Positions 4,463-43,643 of a stretch of DNA of 64,000 bases are shown in pieces. How positions within the stretch are numbered: the stretch's first letter is position 1; each line of letters opens with the position of its first letter. The notes beneath the pieces were generated by a model, which worked only from the letters and a program-made list of their open reading frames with translations, ran no database searches and was not told the DNA's origin. Position numbers and translations under genes: made by a program. The stretch comes from Eledone cirrhosa (taxonomy: Eukaryota), in the NCBI GenBank assembly GCA_964016885.1, contig OZ024745.1, positions 77,810,001 to 77,874,000 on the forward strand, written 5' to 3'.

Positions 4463-4759
4463 TATAAAGAAAAAGAGATGAAATCGAAAATGCAACTGGA
4501 GTCTTATTTTTTTTTTTTTAAATATATATATTTATTTGGTTCCTTTACCGGTTTCGCAGTTCTTCTGCTTTTCACAAGGAGAGTTGAGATGGAGGGTCTG
4601 TGGTTTTCCTCACAGATGTGGAAAAATCAAGACCCTCCATCTCAACTCTCCTTTTGAAAAGCAGAAGAACTGCGAAACCGGTAAACGAACCAAATAAATA
4701 TATATATTTAAAAAAAGAAAAATAAGACTCCAGTTGCATTTTCGATTTCATCTCTTTTT

Positions 4760-7085: not shown

Positions 7086-7121
7086 AACATTATGTATATA
7101 TATATATATATATATATATAA

Positions 7122-7309
7122 GGGCGGTGAATTGGCAGTATCGGTAGAGGGTTGGACGCCATGCTTCCTAGGATAGTTACGTCCCTTTACATTCTCAGTT
7201 CAAATCCCGCCGAGGTTAACTTTGCCTTTCATCCTTACGGGGTCGATAAAATAAAGTACCAGTAATGTACTGGGTAATTGCTGGCCTTGTGCCTAAAGTA
7301 GAAACAATT
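7122..7309 (+). mobile_element. Short (~190 bp) tRNA-head SINE with Meta/MESC-like central domain
   Basis: A-box-like TGGCAGTATCGG, B-box GTTCAAATCC, then GTTAACTTTGCCTTTCATCCTTACGGGGTCGATAAAATAAAGTACCAG. More than 12 copies in the window. Confidence 0.85.
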
Positions 7310-7312
7310 ATG

Positions 7313-7351
<39 letters not shown>

Positions 7352-7391: not shown

Positions 7392-7446
<55 letters not shown>

Positions 7447-7673
7447 AATGAGAGGTACACAGATATATGTGTATACATACATATACATGCATATATACAC
7501 ATATATCTTTCATAAGTATGTGACATTGTGTATTGCCAACCTTAACCAGTGTTGTTCTATGACTAAGGGAGACAAAATCATGGGAATAATTAAATTGACT
7601 CTATATCAGAGCATTATAAAGAAAGAAGAAATAGAAATATTAGACATAAATAAATACCTATTTTTTCTTCAAA

Positions 7674-7765
7674 TTCCCGACTGTACAGTTTCGTGGCTAC
7701 TTTGCAAAAATCCTATATCATAGAGATGTAGCATTCTTGTGAGGTTTGCCGACTTATCAAGAGAA
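7674..7765 (-). ncRNA. Type-I hammerhead, U3-A8 core, long stem II
   Basis: ttctc TTGATAA gtcggc...gccac GAAA ctgtacag TC gggaa. Stem III palindrome ACTGTACAGT; homologous to 14443-14535. Confidence 0.8.
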
Positions 7766-8093
7766 TACCTCATGTAAAATTTATATATATATATATATAT
7801 AAATGTAATCTGAGCTTTTCGAATATTAATGATAATATTCGATTCGTTTGCAATTATGCAAACACCCTCTTTTTTAAAGCCGTCAGTAGAAAGAGCACCT
7901 CATTCTTGCTCTTGTGTTGGCATGTAAACAGAATTTCAGACACTAATGTTTCTGGATATTAGTCTTCATCAGTGCAGTACACTGTTCACCTGCCAACTGT
8001 CAGAGCTAGTGAAAATATGTGATATTTTCTAAAATATACAGTGACTGATTAGCCTGATTTGCATATTTGCAATTTTCGATGATTCTATATCTG

Positions 8094-8622
8094 TATATAT
8101 ACAGTACAGATATAACTGGGACTGCGTCAATGCTTATATAAATTTACATATTGACTCTATAAACATGTAAACATAGTCTTATCAAATGATCTGTATAATC
8201 AGCTAAACAAACCATGAGTTAATACGTAAATGGAGGGCTTATATACTCTATTATTTATAGTAGTATCCTGAAATGGGGGTACTAATTTGCATAATATTAG
8301 TGTTCATGCTGGTAGATAATTTTGATATTAAGTTGTGCAGTAAACGGCCAAATTATATAATTTCACATAGGCATATATACAGTACTGAGGTAACCGAGAC
8401 TGCATAATGCGTATATATATATATATATATTTGAAAATTGAGTATATAAATTTGTAAATATGTCAAAGTTTACGCATTACTCGGTAAATTGTAAAAATGA
8501 TAAATATTTTCAATGGATGTTTTAAGCGTTTTGGATTCTCATCTAGAAATATGTATATCTAAACAACCACACGGAAATAAGTCACTTATAATAGTATCCT
8601 AAGATGGGTGTACTAATTTTCA
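8094..8622. repeat. Diverged tandem duplication (~280-330 bp)
   Basis: TATATACAGTAC..ACTGC..AATGC and TAGTATCCT...GTACTAATTT.CAT each occur twice. Confidence 0.5.
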
Positions 8623-10484
8623 TGTTATAAACCAAAAGGATATAATTGTAAAAATTACTATTGATGTTAAAAAAGGACGTGAATCACTGCTGGAACTGCC
8701 CACTTAGCAATGCCATTATGAACACACTAATCTAAAGACAACGACGCTATGTTTTGCATTCTCTTACCAAAACCAGCCAATTTGTTCAGTAAGAAACAGA
8801 ACTTACCACAACTGTAGAAAGATCAGACATTTTTTCACGAGCAGTTTGGTTAGAGTTATATATAATCCAACATAAGTATCTATAACACTTGCTACGAAAA
8901 GCGGGGTGCATCAAGGATAATAACTTGGAAAAACAACTATTAGACTAGTGATTAATCATACAGAAGCTTTACACGACTCGGGTTGTGGCCACGCCTTTAT
9001 GGATGATGATATTTGCAAGAATCTCTTCGAATTTGCAAGAATTTCTTCGAAATTAAACTATCTTTATGTGGTTGTTTGTTTGAAAATATGTGTGTGAGTG
9101 CATGTAAGTGATGTGCTTGACTGTGTGTGCGCGCTTGTGTGTGTGTATGCATATGTTTGTGGTGTGTATGTAGTGTGGGAGTGCATACATAGGTTCATTT
9201 AAGTTTACATACAAAGCTTAATAAAAGAACAAGCTGTAAGAAATCATTCGATGTAATACAAGTAACGAACTCATTATATCCACAGAAATAATAGCAAGCT
9301 GTCATAATTTGTTTCATGGGATTTAATTTCATTTCTTTGAAATATGGAGAAACTTTGGTTAATCCTACTTTATATAGTCAGTGTAGAAGAAAGGCTTGAT
9401 CACATAATTGAACAGAACATCAACGGAGTGGGTGTTGGCAACGTTAGATATATAACGATATAAACTTACATCATCGTTAAATGTTCTAGGTTTTCATTTA
9501 TGACTTTGTGTAAGCAAATTTACTATGTAGCGCCAATACATCAATATATGAAAACCACATAAATAACTTCTTGTTGCTCTTTAGCACCAGACATGTCAAT
9601 GCTGTGTTTTCCTTCCATAAATTAGTAGTGTGAGATTTGATGATAATTCGCTGTCATTTCTAGCAGGCTGCGTGATCACTTATATTCGCCTACATTAGAG
9701 TGATACATAAGTCGGTGTATGAACTGGCCCACTTCATTGCATATTAGTGTGAGAGTGATTTTTTTCTGTGTATTAGAGAAGGGATTATATATCTATGGAA
9801 ATATGGAAAGGTTTATTCCATCACGAATTGATGACTACTTTGCTCCTCCAAGCATTACAAATTGAATTATGCCCATATGTTACATAGGGAAATAATATAT
9901 TCTTTGTTCATGTTTAAGTTTTATTTTTTTTTTTTAAATCGTACCCTTTTTTTGAAATGAAAAACCTGATAAACACAAGACCCTTTTGCTGCCCTACATA
10001 TATAGCTCTTTGTAAAATAGTGATGGCAACGAGGTACTCTCTAAATGATTCACGCGATATGCTAGGTATAGAGGCTAAATCCCTCTGAAATCTCCCCGAA
10101 ATCGCACAGGAGACTTTGCAGGCCCATCGTCAAAACAGTTAATTTCATTCAGAAAAATATTCTATAAACTAGAACTGGCTAAATTTACATCAAATGAATC
10201 TGACATATTATGTATTAATCAAACCTAATGGCTATTAATATTTTTAACCTGTAGAGAAATAATAACGTTGCATATTCGGTCGACAAGAAATAGGTTTGAG
10301 CAGGTGGTCAATCGGCAGAGACATTATAATGCAAAATTTGAAAAGGATCTCTGCACTATGTGATCAAATACCTTCCATTTAATTTTGTCTTTCCTCCTGT
10401 TAGTATCGATAAATGAAGTTTAAGTCTCGGGGCTATGGTTTGGGGAAGAAGTATTTTGAATAAAACATATATAACCAATTTTTA

Positions 10485-10805
10485 CTGGCATTCCGTCGGT
10501 TACGACGACGAGTGGTTCAGTTGGTACGATCAACGGAACGGCCTGCTCGTGAAATTAACGTACAAGTGACTGAGCATTCCTCAGACACGCGTACCCTTAA
10601 CGTAGTTCTCAGGGAGATTCATCGTGACACAGAATATGACAAAGCTGGCCTTTCCAAATATAGACACAACTTATTCTTGCCAGCGGAGTGGACTGGAGCA
10701 ACGTGAAATAAAGTGTCTGGCTTAAGGACACAACGCGCCACCAGAAATCGAACTCATGACCTTACGATTGTGAGCCGAATACCCTAACCACAAATCCATG
10801 TGTCT
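10485..10805 (-). mobile_element. tRNA-derived SINE with CORE-like domain
   Basis: On minus: tRNA-like head GGTTAGGGTATTCGGCTC...GAGTTCGATTTC, then GTGTCCTTAAGCCAGACACTTTATTTCACGTTGCTCCAGTCCACTC. A partial copy lies near 40000-40120. Confidence 0.7.
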
Positions 10806-11816
10806 TTATATAAGCAATACTAACTCTTTAAAGGACAAATTAATGTGAATGTGTTAGAAATATATCATAAGTTGAGTAGCTTAAAGAAAGCTGAGAACTA
10901 GCAGGCAAATCAAAACACATGCAAAACAACACAAATACAATTCTATGTTAATTTATTGTTATAAGAGTATAGTATAATAATTTAAACAATGCAGTAGTCA
11001 ATAATAGTTCTTTCTAGGTGCCAAATAAGTATTCTTTAATAAAAATAGTGTTGCAGAAAAGACGTCTAGTATTCCTCATGTTTTCGCCCCCGGTAATATA
11101 TTTTAGAATGCTGAAAAGTGGCGGGACAAGCAGCTATTACGTCACTAGCAGACAGAACCATTTTCTTCAGATCTGATATTTTCATTCCTGTGGCCTTAAT
11201 CATATAAATTCTTTTATTTTCTCCACCTGAAAAATTCTAATGAAAACACACACACAACTTAATGTAGAGTTTATAAATTTCTTTAAAGAAAGCTAAAAAC
11301 AATGACTTAATTTCCTAACATTATTTTAATCTACTCAAGTAAAAGGACGTTCATAGTCAATAAAAAGTAAATATTAACGTACAGTGACTTTGTTGTATAA
11401 GAGTTGCAAGGTGAAGCTATATATCAGGAGGTTAGACATACGAACCTTCATGGACTACTTTTTGAGGTGATGTTTTACAGCCAGATGCCCTTTCTGTTGT
11501 CAAAACGGTTAGTAACCTGTAAGACATGTAAAGATACAGTGAACCTATTATAAATTGGTTACACACGGCACTTAACTGGTTACACCCGGCCCGTAGTGAA
11601 ACTAGATAAACACCAACACAATATGTGACAAGCTGGTTAACTTTGAGCATTTAAGAAGAAAGTGTGTAGTTATATGTATACAAGTAAACTAATGGACCAT
11701 AACATGTATAGTAGCTGATTGAGGTCTAATACGTATTCTTATTTTTGATGAAGGATAAATACATATATCATTATTTCATTAGTTGAAACAGAAATATGTT
11801 TATAAAGTAAAGGTTC

Positions 11817-12070
11817 TTTTTAGAAGAGCTTCTATAGTCATGCAATATGAAATAAGAGGAGATAATCGCTACATTCCCTTTAAAATAGATATGCAATACT
11901 TAAGATGTTTTTAGAATAGAGCTTCCATAGTCATGCAATATGAAATAAGAGGAGATAATCGCTACATTCCCTTTAAAATAGATATGCAATACTTAAGATG
12001 TTTTTAGAATAGAGCAATATGAAATAAGAGAAGATAATCACTACGTTTCTTTTAAAATAGTTATGTAATA
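11817..12070. repeat. Tandem repeat, ~93 bp unit, ~2.8 copies
   Basis: GCAATATGAAATAAGAG.AGATAATC.CTAC at about 11842, 11935 and 12013. Confidence 0.85.
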
Positions 12071-12304
12071 CCGTTTACATGTATCATACACCATCCAAAA
12101 TACTTTCACCAATTCCCAAGCTTTTTTTTTCTGATATTTACATTGTTGATATTTTCTATTACTTCGATAGCAATACATCAAAAGACTAATCTATTTCTTG
12201 ATATCAGATAGTATAAGCTTAAATTAGCATTCACAGCACTTTTCCTAAGTGATAAGTGTTATGGAACAACAAAAGAAACATAATCAAGCTAAACAAGAGT
12301 TGAT

Positions 12305-12400
12305 TCTGTGAATCACATGTGTGATAACTGAGGGGCATATGACTACAACATTTCTGTGAATCACGTGTGTGATAACCGAGAGGCATATGAATATAACATT
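12305..12400. repeat. Tandem duplication, ~48 bp
   Basis: TTCTGTGAATCAC.TGTGTGATAAC.GAG.GGCATATGA twice. Confidence 0.8.
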
Positions 12401-12714
12401 TTGTACAAAGCAAGTATTGTGAAATTCAACCAAGCAGTAAATTACTTTTTCAAAAAAATGTATTTTTAGCAACAAGAGATAGTCAGGAAGCTGTATGACT
12501 AGACCAACACTTGTATTCAGTAGCAATTGTACAATTTTTCGTGAGTGTGACAAATTTAAAGAGGTCTCTACAATTATGCAAGTAATCATCAACGCTATCT
12601 ATGGTATTGTTAGGGCATCAGTGAAGATTTCGAATTACCCCCCCCCCCCTCTTCTTCTCCCCCCGCCTCCTCCTCCCCTCCCCCTTCTTCTTTTTTTTCT
12701 TCTTCACCCACTTA

Positions 12715-13030
12715 TTCCTGGAAGGGAGAGGGTCCTGTTTGAAGCAACCATGTCCAATTGATCCGAGAGGATCTCCAAGCGAGACCAGCCGAGTTCATAG
12801 ATGTTATCCAACAATCATGTTCAGGATTCTACCTGGAGTGATAATCTGATCTCCTAGCTATGCACTCTATCGAGTAACAGTACTCCAAAGACCCTTCGGA
12901 GGAACCCCCATTTCGGACGCTTGTATTCGCGATTGATTTCTTTGTCATTACCCAAGATTTATGACCATAGGTAGTGCTTGGCATGAATACCTAATTGAAG
13001 ATAAAGAGTTTGGCTTTTCTACCTAGCTTG
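12715..13030 (-). mobile_element. RTE-clade LINE 3' remnant
   Basis: Homologous to 48635-49030 and 55560-55910 (CCCTTCGGAGGAACCCCATTTC block). Confidence 0.65.
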
Positions 13031-13894
13031 CTCATTACTGAATGTGAAATCTCACTCTGGTTTTAATATATACACTCTGCCTTAGCATAGACTGCTGGCT
13101 TTTGTACCATGAGAAATGTATTGAATGTTACGAATACTTTAATACAAGTAAGGAAATGTAGAAATATGTTATATAAACAATATACATGTAAAACAACGAT
13201 GTAATTAAATGTACTATATATTAATAGCAGCAATCAGATCTGGTGAAAAATAAAACAACATAAAGTTTTTATTGAAGCGAATTAGATACATGGTTTAACT
13301 ACATACACTCGGGCTCGGGTCCCAAATAATAGGGGTTAATATGCGAGGCGGGCAGGGATAAGTGGGGGAGGGGATAAATGAGGGAATTGCTAAATCGGTA
13401 ATTGCATAGTGTACGTTCGTAATTATGGATTTCTTGTAATGTTCTTTTATGTCATATGTGTTTTTTTCATGTAGAATAAAATTATAATTAGATTCTCCAG
13501 CTGCTGTATCAATATGAATCATCTACAATAACATTTCGTCGGAAATAAATTAGCAAAATTTATTAAGCAGGGGGATGGGTGAAATAAAGGCAGGGGTGGT
13601 GGAAAAAATCTAAAAAGTTAATAAGCGTGGGGGGGGGGGGGATTATTGAAGATCTGGGGTAGATGCTAATATAACTACGTGAATGGCATTCTATGTACAA
13701 AAAAGAAAGAATATAAATTTACAAATCTCCGTATATATGATGACATTTAGTAGAATTCATTTGTGACATACAAGGTAAGCAGCTACGCCTTTTTGTGGTG
13801 AATATATACTGTTGTAAACAAAACATATTTATAAATAGAATTCTTCGCACTCCCTCTCTCTCTCACACATTCTTTTGCTCTCTATATCCTACTG

Positions 13895-14083
13895 TCGTGG
13901 ATTGGCAGTATCGGTAGAGGGTCGGACGCCATGCTTTGACGCATTGAGTTACAGCCCTTGCCATTCTGAGTTCAAATCCCGCCGATGTTAACTTTTTCTT
14001 TCATCCTTACGGGGTCGATAAAATAAAATACCAGTAATACACTAGGATAATTGCTGGCCTTGTGCCAAAAGTAGAAACAATTA
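13895..14083 (+). mobile_element. Short Meta-like SINE copy
   Basis: Near-identical to 7122-7309. Confidence 0.85.
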
Positions 14084-14243
14084 TATATATATATAGTACC
14101 AAAAGTAGAAACAATGTGTATATATTGTGTATGTAGCCGATATCTCAGGCCTTTACAAAGCGCAAAGTGTGGTGAATAATGAAAGGATGTGCTGCCAACG
14201 TCCTCCCATATATGTGCTTATGCATGTACGTGTGTCTACATAT

Positions 14244-14276
<33 letters not shown>

Positions 14277-14442
14277 CAATATATAGAGAAACACACAGAT
14301 ACATGCGGACACATACATATACATGAATATATCTACATATATCCTTGAGTTTGACCGCTGTATCACGTGATTGACTCCCCCTCCGCCTTACGGGATTCTA
14401 TCTCGCGTCCTATGGACGTGTTTTGAAACTCTTAATGAGGTA

Positions 14443-14535
14443 TCCTCTTGATAAGTCGGCAAACCTCACAAAAATTCTATATCTCTGTGATGTAGTGTTT
14501 TTGCATAATATGCCACGAAACTACGTAGTCGGGGA
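14443..14535 (+). ncRNA. Type-I hammerhead, U3-A8 core, long stem II
   Basis: tcctc TTGATAA gt(c)ggca...tgccac GAAA ctacgtag TC gggga. Stem III palindrome ACTACGTAGT. Confidence 0.8.
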
Positions 14536-14609
14536 CTAAAGCAGCAGTTTGGATATGATATATCTTATTATTAATTATATCTAATGTTTCTTCTCTCTTC
14601 ATAATGTAT

Positions 14610-14692
<83 letters not shown>

Positions 14693-14797
14693 TAGAAGAG
14701 GTGCATTTGAATTGCGTTCACAGGCTATAAGCTAAGATGAGCACTCGATGCTCTTGGGGAGTAGAGTATCAATAGGGATAAATAGGAAGAAAGAATT

Positions 14798-15037
14798 AGT
14801 ATTGCATCATGTACATATTTAATTACATATTACATATGTTTCACTGCCGATCAGCTCGAGGAACGATCGAATAATGTTCGATCGTGACTCAGGAATCCGT
14901 TCGTCTACATGTGAGAATACATATCTGAGGAGCTGCCGATTCCAGAGTCAGGATCGAACATTATTCGATCGTTCATCGAGCTGATCGTCAGTGAAACATA
15001 TGTAATATGTAATTAAATATGTATATGATGCAATACT
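14798..15037. repeat. Foldback (about 100 bp arms)
   Basis: 14798-14897 is the reverse complement of 14938-15037. Confidence 0.85.
14919..15010 (+). ncRNA. Type-I hammerhead with extended stem II
   Basis: acatat CTGAGGA gctgccgat...atcgtcagt GAAA catatg TA atatgt. Perfect 6-bp stem I; stem III palindrome ACATATGT. Confidence 0.85.
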
Positions 15038-16350: not shown

Positions 16351-16590
16351 ATTATTTTTATTATTATTATTATTATTGAATGCCATGGTTGACGGAGGCT
16401 CGGCTCTGTAAGGTATAGTAATTTTTAACCGTTAAAACAATTGTAAATTGTTTAAAACTTGAACCAAATTGTTGATAAAGACACCCTCCTCCTCGTGAGA
16501 GGGGTCTTTCTGTCCGTTATTTGGCCCTTCGGGGTTAAATAACCAGTTATTGGGGTTTTGTACCCAAAATTTCATTTTAAACAAAAAAAC

Positions 16591-18690
16591 ATGGCTACGA
16601 AAAAGAAATTTCATACGTCACTCCCACTCATTCCGTCTTCTTCTTCCTCAATCATCACTACAACAGAGAGAAGATTGTCTCTCTCCCTCCCTTCTTTAAA
16701 TGTGTCTCTCTCCCTCCCTTCTCTTTCGCAAGCGACGAAAGAAAAGAAAAGTCTCGTGCAAAGCGTGCAAGGTTTCTCCACGACGACGACGACAGCGACG
16801 AAACAGGTGTGCGGGAAATACGAAAACCCAGTTCATTCGTCTGACGTCAGGAATAATAGCAGTAGCAGCCGTAATAACAACAGCAACAGTGACAATGAAA
16901 ACAACAGTAGCAGCCGCAACAGCATCACCAGCAGCATAAACAACAACAGCATTAGCAGCAGCAACACCAACAACAACCACAGCAACAGCGGCGGAGGCAG
17001 TAGTCGTAGTACCTGCAGCAACAACAAAAGTACCAGCAGCTCTGACGACAACAACAACAGCAGAGAAAAACCAATCTCATTTGCAGGTATTGCGAAAAAC
17101 TTGGAAACAATCCTCATAACAAATGAGGAATTAGAGGAAGCGAAGAAGATGGTGACAAAGAACGGACACCGAGCAATCTGCAAGGCAGCGAAAAATTTTT
17201 TCGAAACCCAAGAGCACTGTACGGTCACGTACCGTACAGTAAGTACAAAATCCCGTAGGGTGGAAAGAGCCACAGAGGCCCAAATACAAAAAGCCTTGGG
17301 GTCTGTGTGGCAGAGGAAAACGCACATCACCCGAGGCAAAAAATACGCCACCGTAGACGTACTTTTTGCCACACCCCAGGAGGCAAAGGCCCAATCAGTA
17401 GTGACCCTAAGGAGCGAGGAAATGGTGTTGGTGCCCTCCTACTGCGGGCAAAAAATTGTGAGGGTCAAACTGACCCACGTCCCCCCCCCGGAATGACCCC
17501 TTCTTGGCTGGCCGCGTCTGTCCTCGTCGGAATCGAGGACAAAACAACTGTACTGCAAGTACAGAAAAAAAGTAAGAGAAGATTGGGTCGGCTCCTCCAT
17601 TGAGATGCTAATCCAAACCAACCAGGAGTGCATCGAAGCTATCCCGGATGTGATAGACTTCGATAACAGCACTCAACTGCCCATAAGTGTTGAGGGCAAA
17701 CGCCCGAAATGCTTTCGCTGTGGATCGAAGACCCACCTCAGGGCCTTCTGCAACGAGAAGACCCTGAGAAAGGAGAAAACCCCCCTCCTTCCGAATCCGG
17801 CTCCACGGCTACCAGCAACAGGACAAGCGGCAACCAGGAACGATAGGCCCGTGGCACCCATACCCACTCCACGGAAATCAAAAACAGCAGCAGCAGTGGA
17901 AATACTAACAACAACAACAGCAATACCAAATGCAGCTGCAACAGAGACTCCAGTGCAAACATCACCAACAACAACAAGTGAAAGAGTGGAGTTGGTACCC
18001 CTCCCCGACCTCACAGAATCAGACATGGAGTGTGAGGTGGGAGAGAGATGGCAAAAGGTCGTAAGAAGACACAAACACAGAAGCAGCGCATCGTCGCCTT
18101 TGAAAAGGGAGGAAAGAAATGAGAAAAGGGTAAAGTCTACTGCAAAGAGACCCACAGCAGCAACAACACCAACACCATCACCACCCACACTAGCGCCACC
18201 ATCACCACCGGCGACAACCCCACCGCCAACAACACCTTCAACACCACCACCACAAGCACCAACATCGCAAACACAACAACAAAACACACACACCCAGCAA
18301 CAACGACAAGAAAATAACAGAACCACACCCCACCCCCAGAAAAACAAATGCACGGCAATAAATACACACAACAAGAAACTAATGACTTACATAATTGAAC
18401 ACACAGACATTTCACAACAGGACTACATAATACCAGCACCAATCAAAACGCCAACTAACATAAGACTGCTAAAAATAGCACAGAAACAATACACAAATAT
18501 TAAAACGAAATTCCCCAACGCAGTTGGTGATTTCAGGGACCTAGGAGGAACCATCAATCGAAGAGTATACTCAGACATTCTCTTAGAAGAGCCGACGACC
18601 AGCCGAAGGGACGATTCAACGGTCCCTTCACCAGACGATCAAGTGAAAAGGGATGTAAAAACCATCCCTCCTCTACCAAAAGTACGGTAA
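16591..18690 (+). CDS. LINE ORF1 (RRM-like region + CCHC zinc knuckle), interrupted near 17481-17571
   Basis: ORFs 16558-17496 and 17605-18690 share a frame and are separated by one TGA at 17494. Contains the knuckle CFRCGSKTHLRAFC plus S/N-rich and P/T-rich low-complexity segments. Confidence 0.75.
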
Positions 18691-18725
18691 GTGGTCTTTC
18701 CCATCTTTTCCACTCTATTTTAAAC

Positions 18726-21700
18726 ATGACCTCACTCAGAATAGGCAGCATAAATGCGCGTGGCTTGGGGTCGTCATGGAAGCAGGGTCACCTGCTCAAC
18801 GACCTCAGGTCACTAAACATAGATGTAGTGGCCATCAGCGAGACCAGAATCTCCGAAGCACGGGCCTTCGCACCGATCTTCGGCGGCTACGATGTGTACG
18901 CATCTCCCAGCCGTCCTGGATCGGGTGGAGGAGTTGCTGTGCTTTTTCGGAGAGGTTTGGATCTCGCCATACGGGCCATCTTCCTGGACCCAGAGGGTAA
19001 GCTGGTGGTGCTGGACGTGACCAGCGGAGACGGGCAAGCTTTCAGGCTAGTGGCCGTCTATGCCCCGACAGGAGCAGGGCGGCCTGATTTCTTCCGGCGT
19101 CTGGAGACCTTTCTTGGAACGTCCCGCTCTTTAGTGTTAGTGGGCGACTGGAACGGGATCTTAGATGCACGCTGGGACTGTGTGGGATTAGCGGATAGGG
19201 GTGGAGGGTGCAAGAGCCTCACCAACCTGCTCAGGCGTTTTGAACTGTCTGACAGGTACCGATTGGATTTCCCGAATGTGCCAATGTGGACTTGGACAAA
19301 CCGTATAGGGTCATCCAGATCATATCTAGATAGAGTATTTTGTAGGGAAATAGATAGGTCTAGCATAGGCTGTCCACAATTCAAGATAGTCAGCTACACG
19401 GACCACAAATTCGTGACCTGTGTGCTTGACTTAGATAGGCTTCATAGACGAGGACCCGGCTACTGGAAGCTAAACGCGTCCTTACCAGCGCGCAAGGCCT
19501 ACAGAGACCGGATTAGCGAACTAGTTAAGCGGGCGTTGACGGGGGCCATCGTCAACAACAAGTGGTGGTTTGCTCTGAAAAGAGCGATTAGAATAGAATC
19601 CATTAGCTTTAGTAAGGCTTTAGCAATAGAGAAAAATAGAGCAGAGGGAGAACTAGTTAGAAAATTAGACGAGGCGCTTAGCAAAGGCATTGCGACCGAC
19701 GTGCTTGCGGCGAAATTGGCCCTTGACCAATTCTTCAATGCAAAGCACGAAGGCTGCGTTGTCAGAGCTAGGGTGCGTGCTCTCAGACACGAGAGGACGA
19801 AAGCCGTTCAATGGGCTCGAGTGGCGGAGGCGCGTCGTGGCAACAAAACCACGATCCGGTCTTTGGTGGACCACGACGGGCGCATGCTACTCGATCCCGG
19901 GCAAATGTGTGAAGCTTTTCAGCGACACTTCGCTCAGCTGTTCGGGGGCAGCGGGGGGCCGGGTAGAGGGATGGACTTTAGTGTCTACCTCGACGGACTG
20001 CCGCGGCTCTCGGCCACTGAGGCGAAGTGTTGCGAAAAGCCGATAACAGCCGCTGAAGTACGGGAGGCAATGACTGGCTGCACAAGGGGTAAATCGCCTG
20101 GTTTGGATGGTCTGCCCTATGAACTTTACGTACAGATGCCAGACTTGTTCGGAGGCCTCTTGGCGGACGTCTACTGCAACTGGCAACAGAACGGGAGAAT
20201 TCCCAGTTCTGTGAGCCGAGGAGCGGTGGCACTGCTGAGAAAGGATCCGAACAAGGGGGATAACATAGACAATTTCCGGCCCATAACTCTGCTAAACACA
20301 GAGTTTAAGATTTTGGCCAAGGTGCTAGCAAAGAGGTTGGCGCTTGTCGTTGGTGGTCTGGTGGGAGAGGCGCAGACATGCGCCATTCCCGACAGATCCA
20401 TCAACGACAACCTCCACCTCATGCGATACATCGTAGAGAGGGTAGCTAGGGAACCTGGCACGGGTGGGTCCTTGATCAATTTAGATCAGTCGAAAGCTTT
20501 CGATAGGGTCGACCATCGTTACCTAGCGGCAGTCCTGAGGGCGGCTGGCTTTGGGCCCGTCTTCAGAGGCTGGATCGCTGCCATGCACAGCGACATCTGC
20601 TCTGTGGTGAGAGTGAACGGTCACCTGTCGGAACCGTTCAACATCATGCGCTCGGTCCGCCAAGGATGTCCCCTCTCGTCCCTCTTGTACGTATTGACTC
20701 TCGAGCCATTACTGCACAAACTGGAGACGTTGAGGGGAGTCCCGCGCGAACTAGGATGCGGAAGATCCGTGTCAGCATATGCGGACGATGTCACCGTAGT
20801 GGTGTCGAACGCCAAACACATCGAGGCGATCGGCACTACACTAAGAGAATACGAAGCGGTGACAGGAGCAATGATCAACCAGGAAAAGTCAGTGGGCCTG
20901 CAGCTCGGCACCTGGAGAGGCAGGTCCATGCCGTCCAACAGCGTCGTCGGGCGCTGGACGGACGGACCGGTTAAATTGCTAGGGGTCTGGTTCGGTCCGG
21001 ACCTCCAGACGGACAAAAACTGGGACGAGGTGACGAGCAGGGTGGCTTCTCTCACCCAGAAATGGGCGGAGAGGAAGCTATCCCTGAAAGGTCGAGCGGA
21101 GGTGGCTAACGCGTACATCGCGTCTGTCATCTGCTACCGCCTAACCGTCGTACCTTGTCCTAAGCCTCGCCTGACTGCGCTGGAGCGTTTGCTCTTTCGC
21201 TTTTTGTGGAAGGGACGTGCTCCGATGGTCAGGCGGTCCATCTGTTGTCAACACCCGCTACGTGGAGGGCTGGGCATGCCGTGGCTGATGATGCGCAGGC
21301 ACGCGCTCAGGCTACGACATCTCCACCTCTTCCTCGACGGTGATCAGGTGTGGTCGCCGTTTGCTAGACGCGTTTTTCCCCAGCTCGTTTCCTTGACGGA
21401 GCTGCAGTCCTGGGTCAAGCGAAGACCGAGAGGGAGCGCCTGGAGACTGGAATGTCTTCAGGCGCTCACAGCCCTCGACCAATCGGGCAATGTGATCGGT
21501 GGAAACTCCACCTCGGCGTTCTATAGAGGATTAGTGGAGGGGAAGAGCGACGACGTACTTGGGGAAACTCTAGGCGTCGACGAAAATCAACTAGCCAATC
21601 TCTTCGGAAGAACTTTCGGGCCGGGGCCTATGGACAACTTCCAGAAATCTCTGGCCTGGCAGTGCTACCGAGGAGCCTTGCCAGTTCGGGATAAACTCTA

Positions 21701-22145
21701 CAGGCATGGAGGTGCCGTCAGCCGGGCATGTCCGAGATGCGCGCAGGGCGACGAAACCGTCCTGCACGCACTCGTCCAGTGTCCGAAAATTGCTGACTTG
21801 TGGGTTTATGTCGAACACCTGCTGTCGCGTTTGGGACGGATCCAGCTATCATCTGAGTCCATCGTGAGGATTGCCCCGCCCTCCTCCTTTAGCCGGGAAG
21901 GGCAGGCAGTTTTTATCTGTCTGGTGGCCATGGCGAAAGAGATAGTATGGTGGACACGTTTGAAAGGGCTGAAGACGAGCACTTACCTCTTCGGTGATGC
22001 TCTGATTGACTTTTTCAAATTTCATTTGAAAAGGAAAATCAGAGTAGAGAGGGAAGTGCTCTCTTCCCAGCATTTTGTTGAAAGATGGGTGAGAGAAGCA
22101 AGAATGGCCCGAGTGAATGGGCCGACTCTGAGTATATATCTGTAA
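18726..22145 (+). CDS. LINE ORF2: APE endonuclease + reverse transcriptase + C-terminal CCHC
   Basis: 1139 aa. INARGL, ISET, VGDWN, LDRV and TDH (APE); GKSPGLDGLP, FRPITLLN, DQSKAFDRV, VRQGCPLS and YADD (RT); CPRC...H....C. GPGYWKLN is typical of Tx1/L1. Confidence 0.95.
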   Translation: MTSLRIGSINARGLGSSWKQGHLLNDLRSLNIDVVAISETRISEARAFAPIFGGYDVYASPSRPGSGGGVAVLFRRGLDLAIRAIFLDPEGKLVVLDVTSGDGQAFRLVAVYAPTGAGRPDFFRRLETFLGTSRSLVLVGDWNGILDARWDCVGLADRGGGCKSLTNLLRRFELSDRYRLDFPNVPMWTWTNRIGSSRSYLDRVFCREIDRSSIGCPQFKIVSYTDHKFVTCVLDLDRLHRRGPGYWKLNASLPARKAYRDRISELVKRALTGAIVNNKWWFALKRAIRIESISFSKALAIEKNRAEGELVRKLDEALSKGIATDVLAAKLALDQFFNAKHEGCVVRARVRALRHERTKAVQWARVAEARRGNKTTIRSLVDHDGRMLLDPGQMCEAFQRHFAQLFGGSGGPGRGMDFSVYLDGLPRLSATEAKCCEKPITAAEVREAMTGCTRGKSPGLDGLPYELYVQMPDLFGGLLADVYCNWQQNGRIPSSVSRGAVALLRKDPNKGDNIDNFRPITLLNTEFKILAKVLAKRLALVVGGLVGEAQTCAIPDRSINDNLHLMRYIVERVAREPGTGGSLINLDQSKAFDRVDHRYLAAVLRAAGFGPVFRGWIAAMHSDICSVVRVNGHLSEPFNIMRSVRQGCPLSSLLYVLTLEPLLHKLETLRGVPRELGCGRSVSAYADDVTVVVSNAKHIEAIGTTLREYEAVTGAMINQEKSVGLQLGTWRGRSMPSNSVVGRWTDGPVKLLGVWFGPDLQTDKNWDEVTSRVASLTQKWAERKLSLKGRAEVANAYIASVICYRLTVVPCPKPRLTALERLLFRFLWKGRAPMVRRSICCQHPLRGGLGMPWLMMRRHALRLRHLHLFLDGDQVWSPFARRVFPQLVSLTELQSWVKRRPRGSAWRLECLQALTALDQSGNVIGGNSTSAFYRGLVEGKSDDVLGETLGVDENQLANLFGRTFGPGPMDNFQKSLAWQCYRGALPVRDKLYRHGGAVSRACPRCAQGDETVLHALVQCPKIADLWVYVEHLLSRLGRIQLSSESIVRIAPPSSFSREGQAVFICLVAMAKEIVWWTRLKGLKTSTYLFGDALIDFFKFHLKRKIRVEREVLSSQHFVERWVREARMARVNGPTLSIYL

Positions 22146-22405: not shown

Positions 22406-22453
<48 letters not shown>

Positions 22454-22755
22454 GGGCAGTGGATTGGCAGTATTGGGAGAGGGTCGGACGCCATGCTTTG
22501 ACGTATAGAGTTACGGTCCTTGCCATTCAAATCCCGCCGAGGTTAACTTTGCCTTTCATCCTTACGGGGTCGATAAAATAAAGTACCAGTAATGCACTGG
22601 GTAATTGCTGGCCTTGTGCCTAACGTGAACACAATTATTATTATTATTATTACGCCCAACCGAGGTTAACTTTGCCTTTCATCCTTACGGGGTCGATAAA
22701 ATAAAGTACCCGTAAATGCACTGGGATAATTTCTGGCTTTGTGCCAATAGTAGAA

Positions 22756-22762
<7 letters not shown>
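22454..22762 (+). mobile_element. Two short SINE copies (22454-22635 full, 22661-22762 truncated)
   Basis: Same family as 7122-7309. Confidence 0.85.
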
Positions 22763-22793
<31 letters not shown>

Positions 22794-22955
22794 TAGAATT
22801 GGAGCTCTGAAATAGCAATATATATATGGATGTATATATAATGTATTTTGCAATACACTTTATGCTTAATTAAAAGCCTTTTGAAGACTGTAAGCTATTG
22901 TTTTTTAGAGTAGTGACAAATTCACTTACTTTGATCTCAGCAAACAGGGGAGATA

Positions 22956-23000
22956 AGCCGACAAGGCCTTGTTTCGCTTTTGTTGAAACTTATCAAGGCT
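22956..23000 (-). ncRNA. Type-I hammerhead, U3-A8 core
   Basis: Reverse complement of 23586-23630. Confidence 0.8.
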
Positions 23001-23275
23001 AACTACTCCCTCCTGTCTACCAAGATCACTGATGTTATATTCTTATAGAATTCTAGTAAATAATCAGGAGCTGATTATGCAGAGCGGTTGTTGGTCAGGC
23101 AGAAATTAAAAATTAGAATTGGAGCTCTGAAATAGCAATATATATATGGATGTATATATAATGTATTTTGCAATACACTTTATGCTTAATTAAAAGCATT
23201 TTGAAGACCGTAAGCTATTGTTTTTTAGAGTAGTGACAAATTCACTTACTTTGATCTCAGCAAACAGGGGAGATA

Positions 23276-23320
23276 AGCCGACAAGGCCTTGTTTCGCTTT
23301 TGTTGAAGCTTATCAAGGCT
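23276..23320 (-). ncRNA. Type-I hammerhead, U3-A8 core
   Basis: agcc TTGATAA gctt caacaa aagc GAAA caaggccttg TC ggct. Confidence 0.8.
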
Positions 23321-23585
23321 GTTTGCTGAGATCAAAGTAAGTGAATTTGTCACTACTCTAAAAAACAATAGCTTACTGTCTTCAAAATGCTTTTAATTAA
23401 GCATAAAGTGTATTGCAAAATACATTATATATACATCCATATATATATTGCTATTTCAGAGCTCCAATTCTAATTTTTAATTTCTGCCTGACCAACAACC
23501 GCTCTGCATAATCAGCTTCTGATTATTTACTAGAATTCTATAAGAATATAACATCAGTGATCTCGGTAGACAGGTGGGAGTAGTT

Positions 23586-23630
23586 AGCCTTGATAAGTTT
23601 CAACAAAAGCGAAACAAGGCCTTGTCGGCT
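23586..23630 (+). ncRNA. Type-I hammerhead, U3-A8 core
   Basis: agcc TTGATAA gttt caacaa aagc GAAA caaggccttg TC ggct. 12-nt stem III palindrome ACAAGGCCTTGT. Confidence 0.8.
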
Positions 23631-23792
23631 TATCTCCCCTGTTTGCTGAGATCAAAGTAAGTGAATTTGTCACTACTCTAAAAAACAATAGCTTACGGTC
23701 TTTAAAATGCTTTTAATTAAGCATAAAGTGTATTGCAAAATACATTATATATACATCCATATATATATTGCTATTTCAGAGCTCCAATTCTA

Positions 23793-23873
<81 letters not shown>

Positions 23874-29442: not shown

Positions 29443-29669
29443 AATGTATATATACATATATGGATGATTTGATGGTCAGAGTGGGGTCATGAAGACTGCG
29501 GATTGACCTCTGGCCGGCCCTGATGATGATTACCTTTCGACATCCAGTGTAGCAAGCGATGACCCAGAACTTACCAGAGATCATTGTGTCATGAAGTGAT
29601 TCTGCAATCACCGCGCCTGGTCCTATGAGTAGGGTACAACCACAGGGATCATTAATTTAGAATCCTCGC

Positions 29670-29855
29670 GGTGAATTGGCAGTATCGGTAGAGAGTTGGA
29701 CGCCATGCTTTGACGCATAGAGTTACTGCCCTTGCCATTCTGAGTTCAAATCCCGCCGAGGTTAACTTTGCCTTTCATCCTTACGGGGTCGATAAAATAA
29801 AGTACCAGTAATGTACTGGATAATTGCTGGCCTTGTGCCAAAAGTAGAAACAATT
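29670..29855 (+). mobile_element. Short SINE with 19-bp target-site duplication
   Basis: ATTAATTTAGAATCCTCGC at 29651-29669 and 29853-29871. Confidence 0.9.
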
Positions 29856-30139
29856 AATTTAGAATCCTCGCTCATCGTCTATAATATTCATTTGTGGCAC
29901 CCTAGGATGGGGGTTAATTCACCATAATAATACGAACACCTTCAGCACAACTTAATAAACTACTCTATAGTTAAAACACTTTATGCTGTAGGAATTTTTT
30001 GGAAGTTGCGCATAACCATAGAAATTAGGGTCTATATTGAGACATTTCAATAGCTAGGTATAGAAACCCCGGAGTTACCTCCCCTCATGCATTAACTCCC
30101 CTTATCCACACACAATACTTCCGGGTAGTATTCAATGTC

Positions 30140-43189: not shown

Positions 43190-43395
43190 TATACCGTTGA
43201 GAACAATCCTGTTGCTCTACTTGGCTGCTATTTTTTTAGTAGTAATTGTAGACAGCAAGTCTTTGATTTTCCCGCTTTTACTTCGGTCCAGTTTACATAC
43301 GGGTCAATTTTACGACCTTTCAGACCTTTATTAGCTGGCAGGAGGTTGTATATTTTGTCGTTCCTGGGACGTTTAGCCCTAGGAAGGGAAAATGC

Positions 43396-43474
43396 TTCTC
43401 TGATGAGCTTTGGTTTTCCATCATAAATCCATCGGATTTATGAGGTTTTACAAAGCGAAACTGATCAGTAAGGG
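43396..43474 (+). ncRNA. Type-I hammerhead, canonical core, extended stem II
   Basis: ttct CTGATGA gctttg...tcataaatcc atc ggatttatga...caaagc GAAA ctgatcag TA aggg. Stem III palindrome ACTGATCAGT. Confidence 0.85.
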
Positions 43475-43555
43475 CCACTAGGAGAGGTAAATATTTATAT
43501 TATATTTTTTAATGTATTTTGAAAAATTGATTGAATTTTACTTGTTCTGCTTATC

Positions 43556-43643
<88 letters not shown>

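Follow-up and report, generated by a model that had tools for sequence, protein, structure and literature searches.

A repeat family of Eledone cirrhosa with a predicted hammerhead whose palindromic stem III differs between subfamilies

Two predicted ribozyme copies and the repeat family to which they belong

A stretch of 64,000 nucleotides of the Eledone cirrhosa genome (GenBank assembly GCA_964016885.1, contig OZ024745.1, positions 77,810,001 to 77,874,000 of the forward strand), referred to here as the window, holds two related hammerhead-type ribozyme motifs, copy A (7674-7765, minus strand) and copy B (14443-14535, plus strand). Judged by sequence, both are organised as type I hammerheads with a U3-A8 core pair, the core boxes UUGAUAA ... 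GAAA ... GUC following one another in type I order in both copies. Copy A reads TTCTC, TTGATAA, a long stem II, GAA, ACTGTACAGT, C and GGGAA, and copy B runs from TCCTC to ACTACGTAGT, followed by C and GGGGA. Both ACTGTACAGT and ACTACGTAGT are perfect 10-mer palindromes that differ in their four central bases; the second pair of stem I is U-A in copy A and C-G in copy B, and the fourth is U·G in both. The two palindromes and the stem I swap are as an earlier note on this DNA described them. The copies share 85% identity over 99 nt (E 3.5e-26) and are therefore homologous, as that note held, rather than alike by chance. Positions of all parts are collected in Table 1.

Both copies belong to a repeat family for which a sequence pattern gave 3,398 matches in the 3.0-Gb genome and none in a reversed control. 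Neighbouring ribozymes on the same strand lie mostly 583-600 nt apart, an interval that corresponds to one non-coding unit of ~595 nt, with a GC content of 37-42% and no long open reading frame (ORF; the longest beginning with methionine spans 56-76 aa in the three family units folded). The circular fold of the unit is better than that of shuffled sequences (e.g. -177.5 versus -137.4, standard deviation 6.0, 12 shuffles). Tandem 2-3-mers with intact ribozymes occur, among them a trimer at C1:67403830-67405095, and 11 natural dimer units were extracted. BLAST searches with family loci yielded 179 distinct copies, which fall into five subfamilies (G, A, D, B and C) that differ at 14-36% of background columns. 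Copies A and B come from different subfamilies and are independent insertions, each of them truncated and set in (TA)n. Neither is itself tandem, and with one ribozyme per insertion both are therefore likely dead ends. No description of the family was found in the literature; Repbase, Dfam and supplements lay outside that search, so it may already be catalogued.

Among the sequencing runs listed as containing the repeat, none was of RNA. Run X4, of unrecorded type and from a second organism, has one contig of 620 nt over L075:1480-2290, whose ends meet after exactly one unit, compared with hundreds of fragments in run X1. This contig was not used as evidence of circular RNA, as a circle and a collapsed tandem both give such a contig. 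Contigs of three other runs showed no listed loop III change, although rare variants get lost in contigs. A single match to the leader-core-loop pattern in viral contigs, with neither GAAAC nor stem III after it, was taken as chance.

Stem pairing, candidate pseudoknot and palindrome history

Rfam reported nothing at gathering score in the window, and at E<=10 over positions 7400-14800 no hammerhead family was matched, the only matches being sub-threshold and microsatellite-driven; the hammerhead call therefore rests on the core motif and the stems. The missed match is likely explained by the long stem II, and an Rfam match is in any case a test of detection and not a defining trait. The U3-A8 core pair is known from ribozymes of Penelope-like elements (PLEs; PMC4209133; publications are cited here by identifier). 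For a covariation set, 43 copies were drawn from the five subfamilies; pairing holds in 92.5% of its 1,505 cells, compared with 34-46% when partners are slid. The G10.1-C11.1 pair is G-C in 42 of 43 copies, A15.1-U16.1 is A-U in all 43, and 91.6% of stem I cells are paired. Stem I has two covarying pairs, each with the states UA, UG and CG; at pair 2 these number 22, 3 and 17, and the U·G intermediate sits in subfamily D. The core motif and these stems bear out the claim that hammerhead-type motifs with compensatory changes lie in the window.

In stem III the central two pairs, which have no place in a monomer hairpin (predicted at +1.5 kcal/mol), are 95% paired across the 43 copies, and both change on both sides. 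For homo-duplexes of the palindromes the predicted energies are -13.4 kcal/mol in A, -16.9 in D and -12.9 in B, compared with -1.3 kcal/mol for the hetero-duplex of A and B, in line with the expectation of the earlier note that mismatched palindromes should fail to complement one another. A tree from which the loop was masked, for which 117 of 172 extracted copies were kept (the remainder being too truncated upstream), orders the subfamilies as G and A (TGTACA), D (mostly TGCGCA), and B and C (TACGTA). The same order was recovered from 419 columns outside the ribozyme in 11 full units, with supports of 99 and 100. The stem III series thus runs TGTACA, TGCGCA, TACGTA and is palindromic throughout the five subfamilies, and the four-base difference between copies A and B amounts to two double transitions by way of a third palindrome. 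Both the stem I and the stem III changes between these copies are fixed differences between subfamilies, inherited from different source elements. Loops starting with TG, counted by hand in the first 100 of 147, comprise 41 TGTACA, 34 TGCGCA and 25 other variants.

Taken as a pair, the two copies say little about selection. Were both loop pairs to change on both sides, the palindrome would survive with a probability of 1/9 under equal rates, or ~0.2 with the transition share of the family (618 of 1002 differences; hand calculation). With just two copies the covariation is accordingly weak and suggestive only, and it becomes strong only with the five subfamilies. In a neutral simulation of four free sites on the subfamily tree, with sites treated as independent, 2-4 of 10,000 runs ended with a palindrome at all five tips and three or more states, the rate being set to 1-4x background. 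The earlier note had taken the two copies as direct evidence of selection on RNA structure, most simply on a dimer-competent stem III; selection on a self-complementary stem III stands as the best reading at the level of the family, but the two copies are not direct evidence of it (chance 0.1-0.2). A scan of the window with no palindrome required gave seven hammerhead-like matches from three families, and in six of the seven the whole of stem III is palindromic; no homology was found between the unit of one of these, family F, and those of subfamilies A-G.

A further candidate interaction, absent from the earlier note, would join the leader to stem II. The motif TGAGGT, directly before stem I, has its complement, ACCTCA, within the stem II internal loop (6 bp, predicted -7.0 kcal/mol). 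Across the five subfamilies 11 of these 12 positions are fixed, compared with 54% of background columns (p ~0.007), and the single change gives U·G. Stem II has no short terminal loop, and this pairing is predicted instead of the usual contact between loops 1 and 2. Family F carries a different complementary pair, GGAAAA and TTTTCC, at the same two places. Mussel retrozymes likewise lack the canonical bases of the loop 1-loop 2 contact (PMC7229834), and pseudoknots between stems I and II have been predicted in ~40% of hammerheads of all three types (PMC3088659).

Insertion route, proposed mechanism and alternatives

Measured from the predicted cleavage site, 90 of 197 3' ends lie 40-100 nt and 80 lie 200-260 nt downstream (170 of 197 in two bins), defining two fixed 3' sites ~170 nt apart; (TA)n adjoins 144 of the 197, and 5' ends (n=199) are spread over the unit. 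In head-to-head insertions one site was used per arm in 37 of 52, the same site twice in three, and an end was unassigned in 12; one site per arm therefore holds for 37 of 40 assignable insertions (p ~1e-8, by hand). The window copies follow this pattern. Insertion A stops at unit position +256, the second of the fixed 3' sites, and is flanked on both sides by (TA)n. The inverted arm of insertion B ends at the second site, adjoining (TA)n, and its forward arm at the first (~+84) in (TA)n, which spans 14607-14690. Divergence within insertions is low (0.7-0.9% in subfamily C versus a median of 4.3% for random copies), and such likeness holds in most subfamilies, the inverted pairs of B excepted. 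The 5' truncation, partial tandems, inverted 5' arm, tail and microsatellite target found here are together the insertion signature of PLEs (PMC8557442), and in a PLE studied in vitro the tail is delimited by two internal start sites (PMC11167929).

An abundant PLE that targets (TA)n is present in the genome (59,116 candidates) and carries the motifs RWK, DKT and CxCx5C of the Hydra clade, a label given from these three motifs, read by eye against PMC8557442 and not from a tree. Pfam and PDB sequence searches with its protein gave no match. This PLE is a candidate enzyme source for the repeat, whose own unit contains no ORF with reverse transcriptase and GIY-YIG domains, the trait of an autonomous PLE. 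Of 122 family loci, 9 have matches to the PLE protein, with no constant position or orientation. One PLE ORF upstream of a family copy, considered as an autonomous partner, proved to be a nested insertion, as the 3' region of that PLE continues differently in the other copies read. In the abundant PLE (loci L258-L260, L246, L255 and L256) the 3' region is microsatellite-like and ~1.4 kb long, and a hammerhead-like motif, whose stem III is not palindromic, lies ~45 nt ahead of (TA)n. Non-long-terminal-repeat (non-LTR) retrozymes have been proposed to be non-autonomous derivatives of PLEs (10.64898/2026.07.22.740005), and a retrozyme-like, likely PLE-mobilised element is the best reading of the present repeat.

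We therefore propose, with a probability of roughly 0.7, that copies A and B are truncated copies of a ~595-nt repeat likely mobilised by a PLE, and that its predicted hammerhead is likely dimeric through stem III, whose palindrome selection has kept in the source elements. The observations beneath this proposal are the unit, the 2-3-mer tandems, the inverted arms, the (TA)n targets, the two 3' ends, the five subfamilies, the three palindromes and the covariation. RNA longer than a unit, carrying two ribozymes, would be transcribed. The stem III hairpin being predicted unstable, two copies of stem III would pair into a 10-bp duplex (-13 to -17 kcal/mol) that completes both active sites, and cleavage by the dimer would cut out unit-length RNA. 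The 6-bp pairing of leader and stem II may replace the usual contact between loops I and II. The reverse transcriptase-endonuclease of a PLE would then nick (TA)n DNA, with cDNA beginning at two internal sites, one per target strand. New subfamilies would be founded only by variants that keep the dimer stem, after which inserted copies would decay neutrally.

Several points weigh against this proposal. The simulation rests on 1-4 units per subfamily (11 in all) and the test was chosen post hoc; no more than two double-change events, with transitions throughout, underlie the three palindromes. Event-type measures (pair counts and pair types) were not above shuffles (78/500 and 153/500), as is to be expected with few events. 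The predicted hammerhead fold is not the minimum-energy fold, lying 0.4 and 2.6 kcal/mol above it, and the base of stem II was missed by RNAalifold. The leader and its partner are conserved, yet show no fixed two-sided change inside the repeat family, and the pseudoknot therefore stays a prediction. In other hammerhead families, with short stem II, a hand count of 88 six-base loops found about 10 that are perfectly palindromic, the set including decayed copies and stems of other lengths. No nucleotide homology was found between the unit and the candidate PLE (one PLE family, 44 loci), and ribozyme cleavage was dispensable for insertion in one PLE in vitro (PMC11167929). One pair-breaking variant is common to both arms of one insertion, and such RNA may therefore still have been mobilised. 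Finally, the wobble variant TGCGTA was found 11 times and the mismatch variant TACGCA 13 times over the same contig range (hand counts). Because the palindrome reads alike on both strands, the two should be equally frequent under neutral mutation; these one-step variants of single copies thus look neutral, inserted copies appear to decay neutrally, and the constraint is visible only in those source elements from which subfamilies arose. The counts led us to reject a preferential spread of wobble intermediates, and they speak against selection at the window loci themselves. Selection on source elements that spread, and not on individual copies, these two loci or the host, is the best reading.

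A first alternative is that the ribozyme cleaves as a monomer, by means of its 3-bp stem III and the pseudoknot, and that the palindrome serves some other pairing of RNA with RNA, for instance joining two templates in a transposition complex, much as the retroviral dimer-initiation loop joins two RNAs. A stem III of 3 bp exceeds the 1-2 bp typical of dimer-dependent hammerheads (PMC4209133), monomers of invertebrate retrozymes cleave well (PMC7229834) and pseudoknots speed hammerheads (PMC3088659). The insertions are two-armed with two start sites, and a PLE protein is predicted to be dimeric (PMC11167929). Against these points, the stem III hairpin is predicted to be unstable, copies within an insertion are far more alike than random ones, which fits a single template, and no clear mixed-subfamily insertion was found, the four cases flagged looking like classifier errors or truncations. 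On balance we consider this account unlikely.

More speculative, and rather improbable in our estimation, is a model in which the palindrome acts as a subfamily-specific pairing code, akin to a retroviral dimer-initiation signal. By bringing two ribozyme domains together, it would let a dimeric reverse transcriptase of a PLE prime both nicked target strands at the two fixed sites. If so, a new lineage would be cut off from its predecessors each time the palindrome switched (TGTACA, TGCGCA, TACGTA), and the purpose of PLE ribozymes would have a natural test set in this family.

It is quite improbable that a mutational process, such as template switching or repair, perfected near-palindromes and that the subfamily states drifted in the absence of selection on the loop. 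Only two events need explaining, template switching can yield multi-base compensatory changes (10.1101/2021.04.15.439925), and it is frequent in these elements to judge from their inverted arms. Such a process should leave its products in single copies, and these are rare: TYNNRA loops number 0 among 3,398 copies, both outer loop bases are changed in five matches of which none belongs to this repeat family, and the 100 matches listed in each case include no TGCGCA on a C background and one TATATA. The rarity of palindrome-restoring double changes therefore argues against a purely mutational cause, which would in addition leave the covariation of stems I and II and the palindromes of unrelated families unexplained. 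That copies A and B, with their intact cores 6.7 kb apart, are host-domesticated ribozymes under local selection, with a single transcript or each other as possible targets, is scarcely credible given that each is 92-99% identical to other full-length matches listed across the genome, that they are truncated, on opposite strands and with mismatched palindromes, and that, thousands of copies being spread over 3 Gb, a 64-kb stretch holds several hammerhead repeats anyway (seven matches here).

Other elements of the window and comparison with known systems

Table 1 Positions of the ribozyme parts, insertions and other repeats in the window
Feature	Position	Strand	Remarks
Insertion A, single 5'-truncated arm of ~600-nt unit, subfamily A	7437..7782	-	86.5% identity over 363 nt to natural A unit
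A leader TGAGGT	7767..7772	-	Predicted 5' strand of putative pseudoknot
A stem I 5' strand TTCTC	7761..7765	-	
A catalytic core U3-U4-G5-A6-U7-A8-A9	7754..7760	-	U3-A8 variant, from sequence; variant in PMC4209133
A long stem II	7693..7753	-	G10.1-C11.1 base, bulged pyrimidine, internal loop with ACCTCA (7740-7745), distal hairpin 7705-7739
A stem III palindrome ACTGTACAGT	7680..7689	-	Predicted cleavage 3' of C17 at 7679
A stem I 3' strand GGGAA	7674..7678	-	
Insertion B, short inverted arm, unit positions 170-252	14271..14351	-	91.6% identity to natural B unit
Insertion B, forward arm, 5'-truncated, subfamily B	14351..14616	+	91.4% identity over 267 nt
B leader TGAGGT	14436..14441	+	Putative; predicted partner ACCTCA at 14463-14468
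B stem I 5' strand TCCTC	14443..14447	+	Partner GGGGA at 14531-14535
B catalytic core TTGATAA	14448..14454	+	U3-A8 variant
B long stem II with internal loop	14455..14516	+	Distal hairpin 14469-14503
B stem III palindrome ACTACGTAGT	14520..14529	+	Predicted cleavage 3' of C17 at 14530
Second hammerhead repeat family	22787..23799		Ribozymes at 22996 (-), 23316 (-) and 23590 (+)
Third hammerhead family	~43190..43560		Ribozyme at 43400 (+)
Minimal hammerhead	38786	+	
Hammerhead-like motif	~4654	+	
Long interspersed nuclear element (LINE)	16543..22145	+	Presumably L1/Tx1-like
Dispersed repeat of ~190 nt, example copies	7117..7333, 13897..14095, 22449..22785, 29668..29866 and others		

Two further hammerhead-bearing repeat families lie in the window. 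The second family consists of 320-nt tandem units with an inverted arm in (TA)n and has a U3-A8 core and a 12-nt palindromic stem III, ACAAGGCCTTGT; its pattern gave 254 matches genome-wide and 0 in the control, mostly AAGGCCTT among the 100 matches listed, and related copies with non-palindromic stems also occur. The third, with a 485-nt unit, has a C3-G8 core, a long stem II, the palindrome ACTGATCAGT and a candidate GGAAAA/TTTTCC pseudoknot. Its best 40 matches are all 100% identical over 121 nt, so it has spread very recently. The units of families E and F showed no homology to the 595-nt unit. The minimal hammerhead has the stem III ACAT and lies upstream of (TA)n, with a near-identical motif at one other locus (L257), and the hammerhead-like motif near 4654, also present at two further loci (L164 and L171), combines a TTGAAAA core with a palindromic ACCGGT stem III. 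The LINE has an open frame of 1,204 aa (endonuclease, reverse transcriptase and zf-RVT) and two upstream open frames. A ~190-nt dispersed repeat, not identified, has ~12 copies in the window, often adjoining hammerhead insertions.

The closest known systems are the metazoan non-LTR retrozymes (PMC7229834; 10.64898/2026.07.22.740005), which share with the present repeat a non-coding unit with one type I hammerhead each, low GC content, tandem copies and co-occurrence with PLEs; the better-than-shuffle circular fold of the unit is a further likeness. The unit of ~595 nt compares with 170-400 nt in PMC7229834 and falls inside the 51-972 bp of 10.64898/2026.07.22.740005. In contrast to those retrozymes, the present repeat is mostly dispersed, truncated and two-armed and not arranged in long arrays, and it has a U3-A8 core, a ~60-nt stem II and a candidate pseudoknot in place of the loop 1-loop 2 contact.

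Hammerheads of PLE pseudo-LTRs, including the variant in Penelope of Drosophila virilis, are described in PMC4209133 with the same U3-A8 core, bulged helix II base and short helix I, a palindromic helix III proposed to be dimeric, and families rich in compensatory changes; compared with them, the present ribozyme has a 10-nt stem III where theirs is minimal, a far longer stem II and a unit with no ORF. Endonuclease-bearing (EN+) PLEs of the Hydra, Neptune and Naiad clades (PMC8557442; PMC11167929) share the targeting of (TA)n, 5' truncation, partial tandems, inverted 5' copies and a tail delimited by two internal 3' ends. Unlike these, the present unit has no reverse transcriptase/GIY-YIG ORF, its tail is ~165-185 nt compared with 30-40 bp, and one site is used per arm. 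Palindromic repeat hammerheads in which stem III and loop III form a 10-bp dimer stem appear in the legend to Fig. S8 of PMC3088659; relative to the pseudoknotted hammerheads of that paper, the partner here is an internal loop within a long stem II, and the history of the palindrome can be placed on a subfamily tree.

Nothing published is overturned by these findings, as both the palindromic stem III and the idea of a dimer are already in print (PMC4209133; PMC3088659, Fig. S8 legend). What hammerheads do in PLEs and retrozymes is an open question, one PLE having needed no cleavage for insertion in vitro (PMC11167929) and 8 of 9 frog retrozyme dimers having failed to cleave (10.64898/2026.07.22.740005). 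To this question the family adds tree-based evidence of selection on the dimer stem in spreading lineages, together with evidence from insertion structure of a retrozyme-like unit moving by a PLE route, and it supplies natural matched and mismatched palindromes for comparing homo- and hetero-dimers. What is new here is modest, and consists of the large unit, the long stem II with its likely pseudoknot, the long tail used at one site per arm, and the tree-ordered walk from one palindrome to the next.

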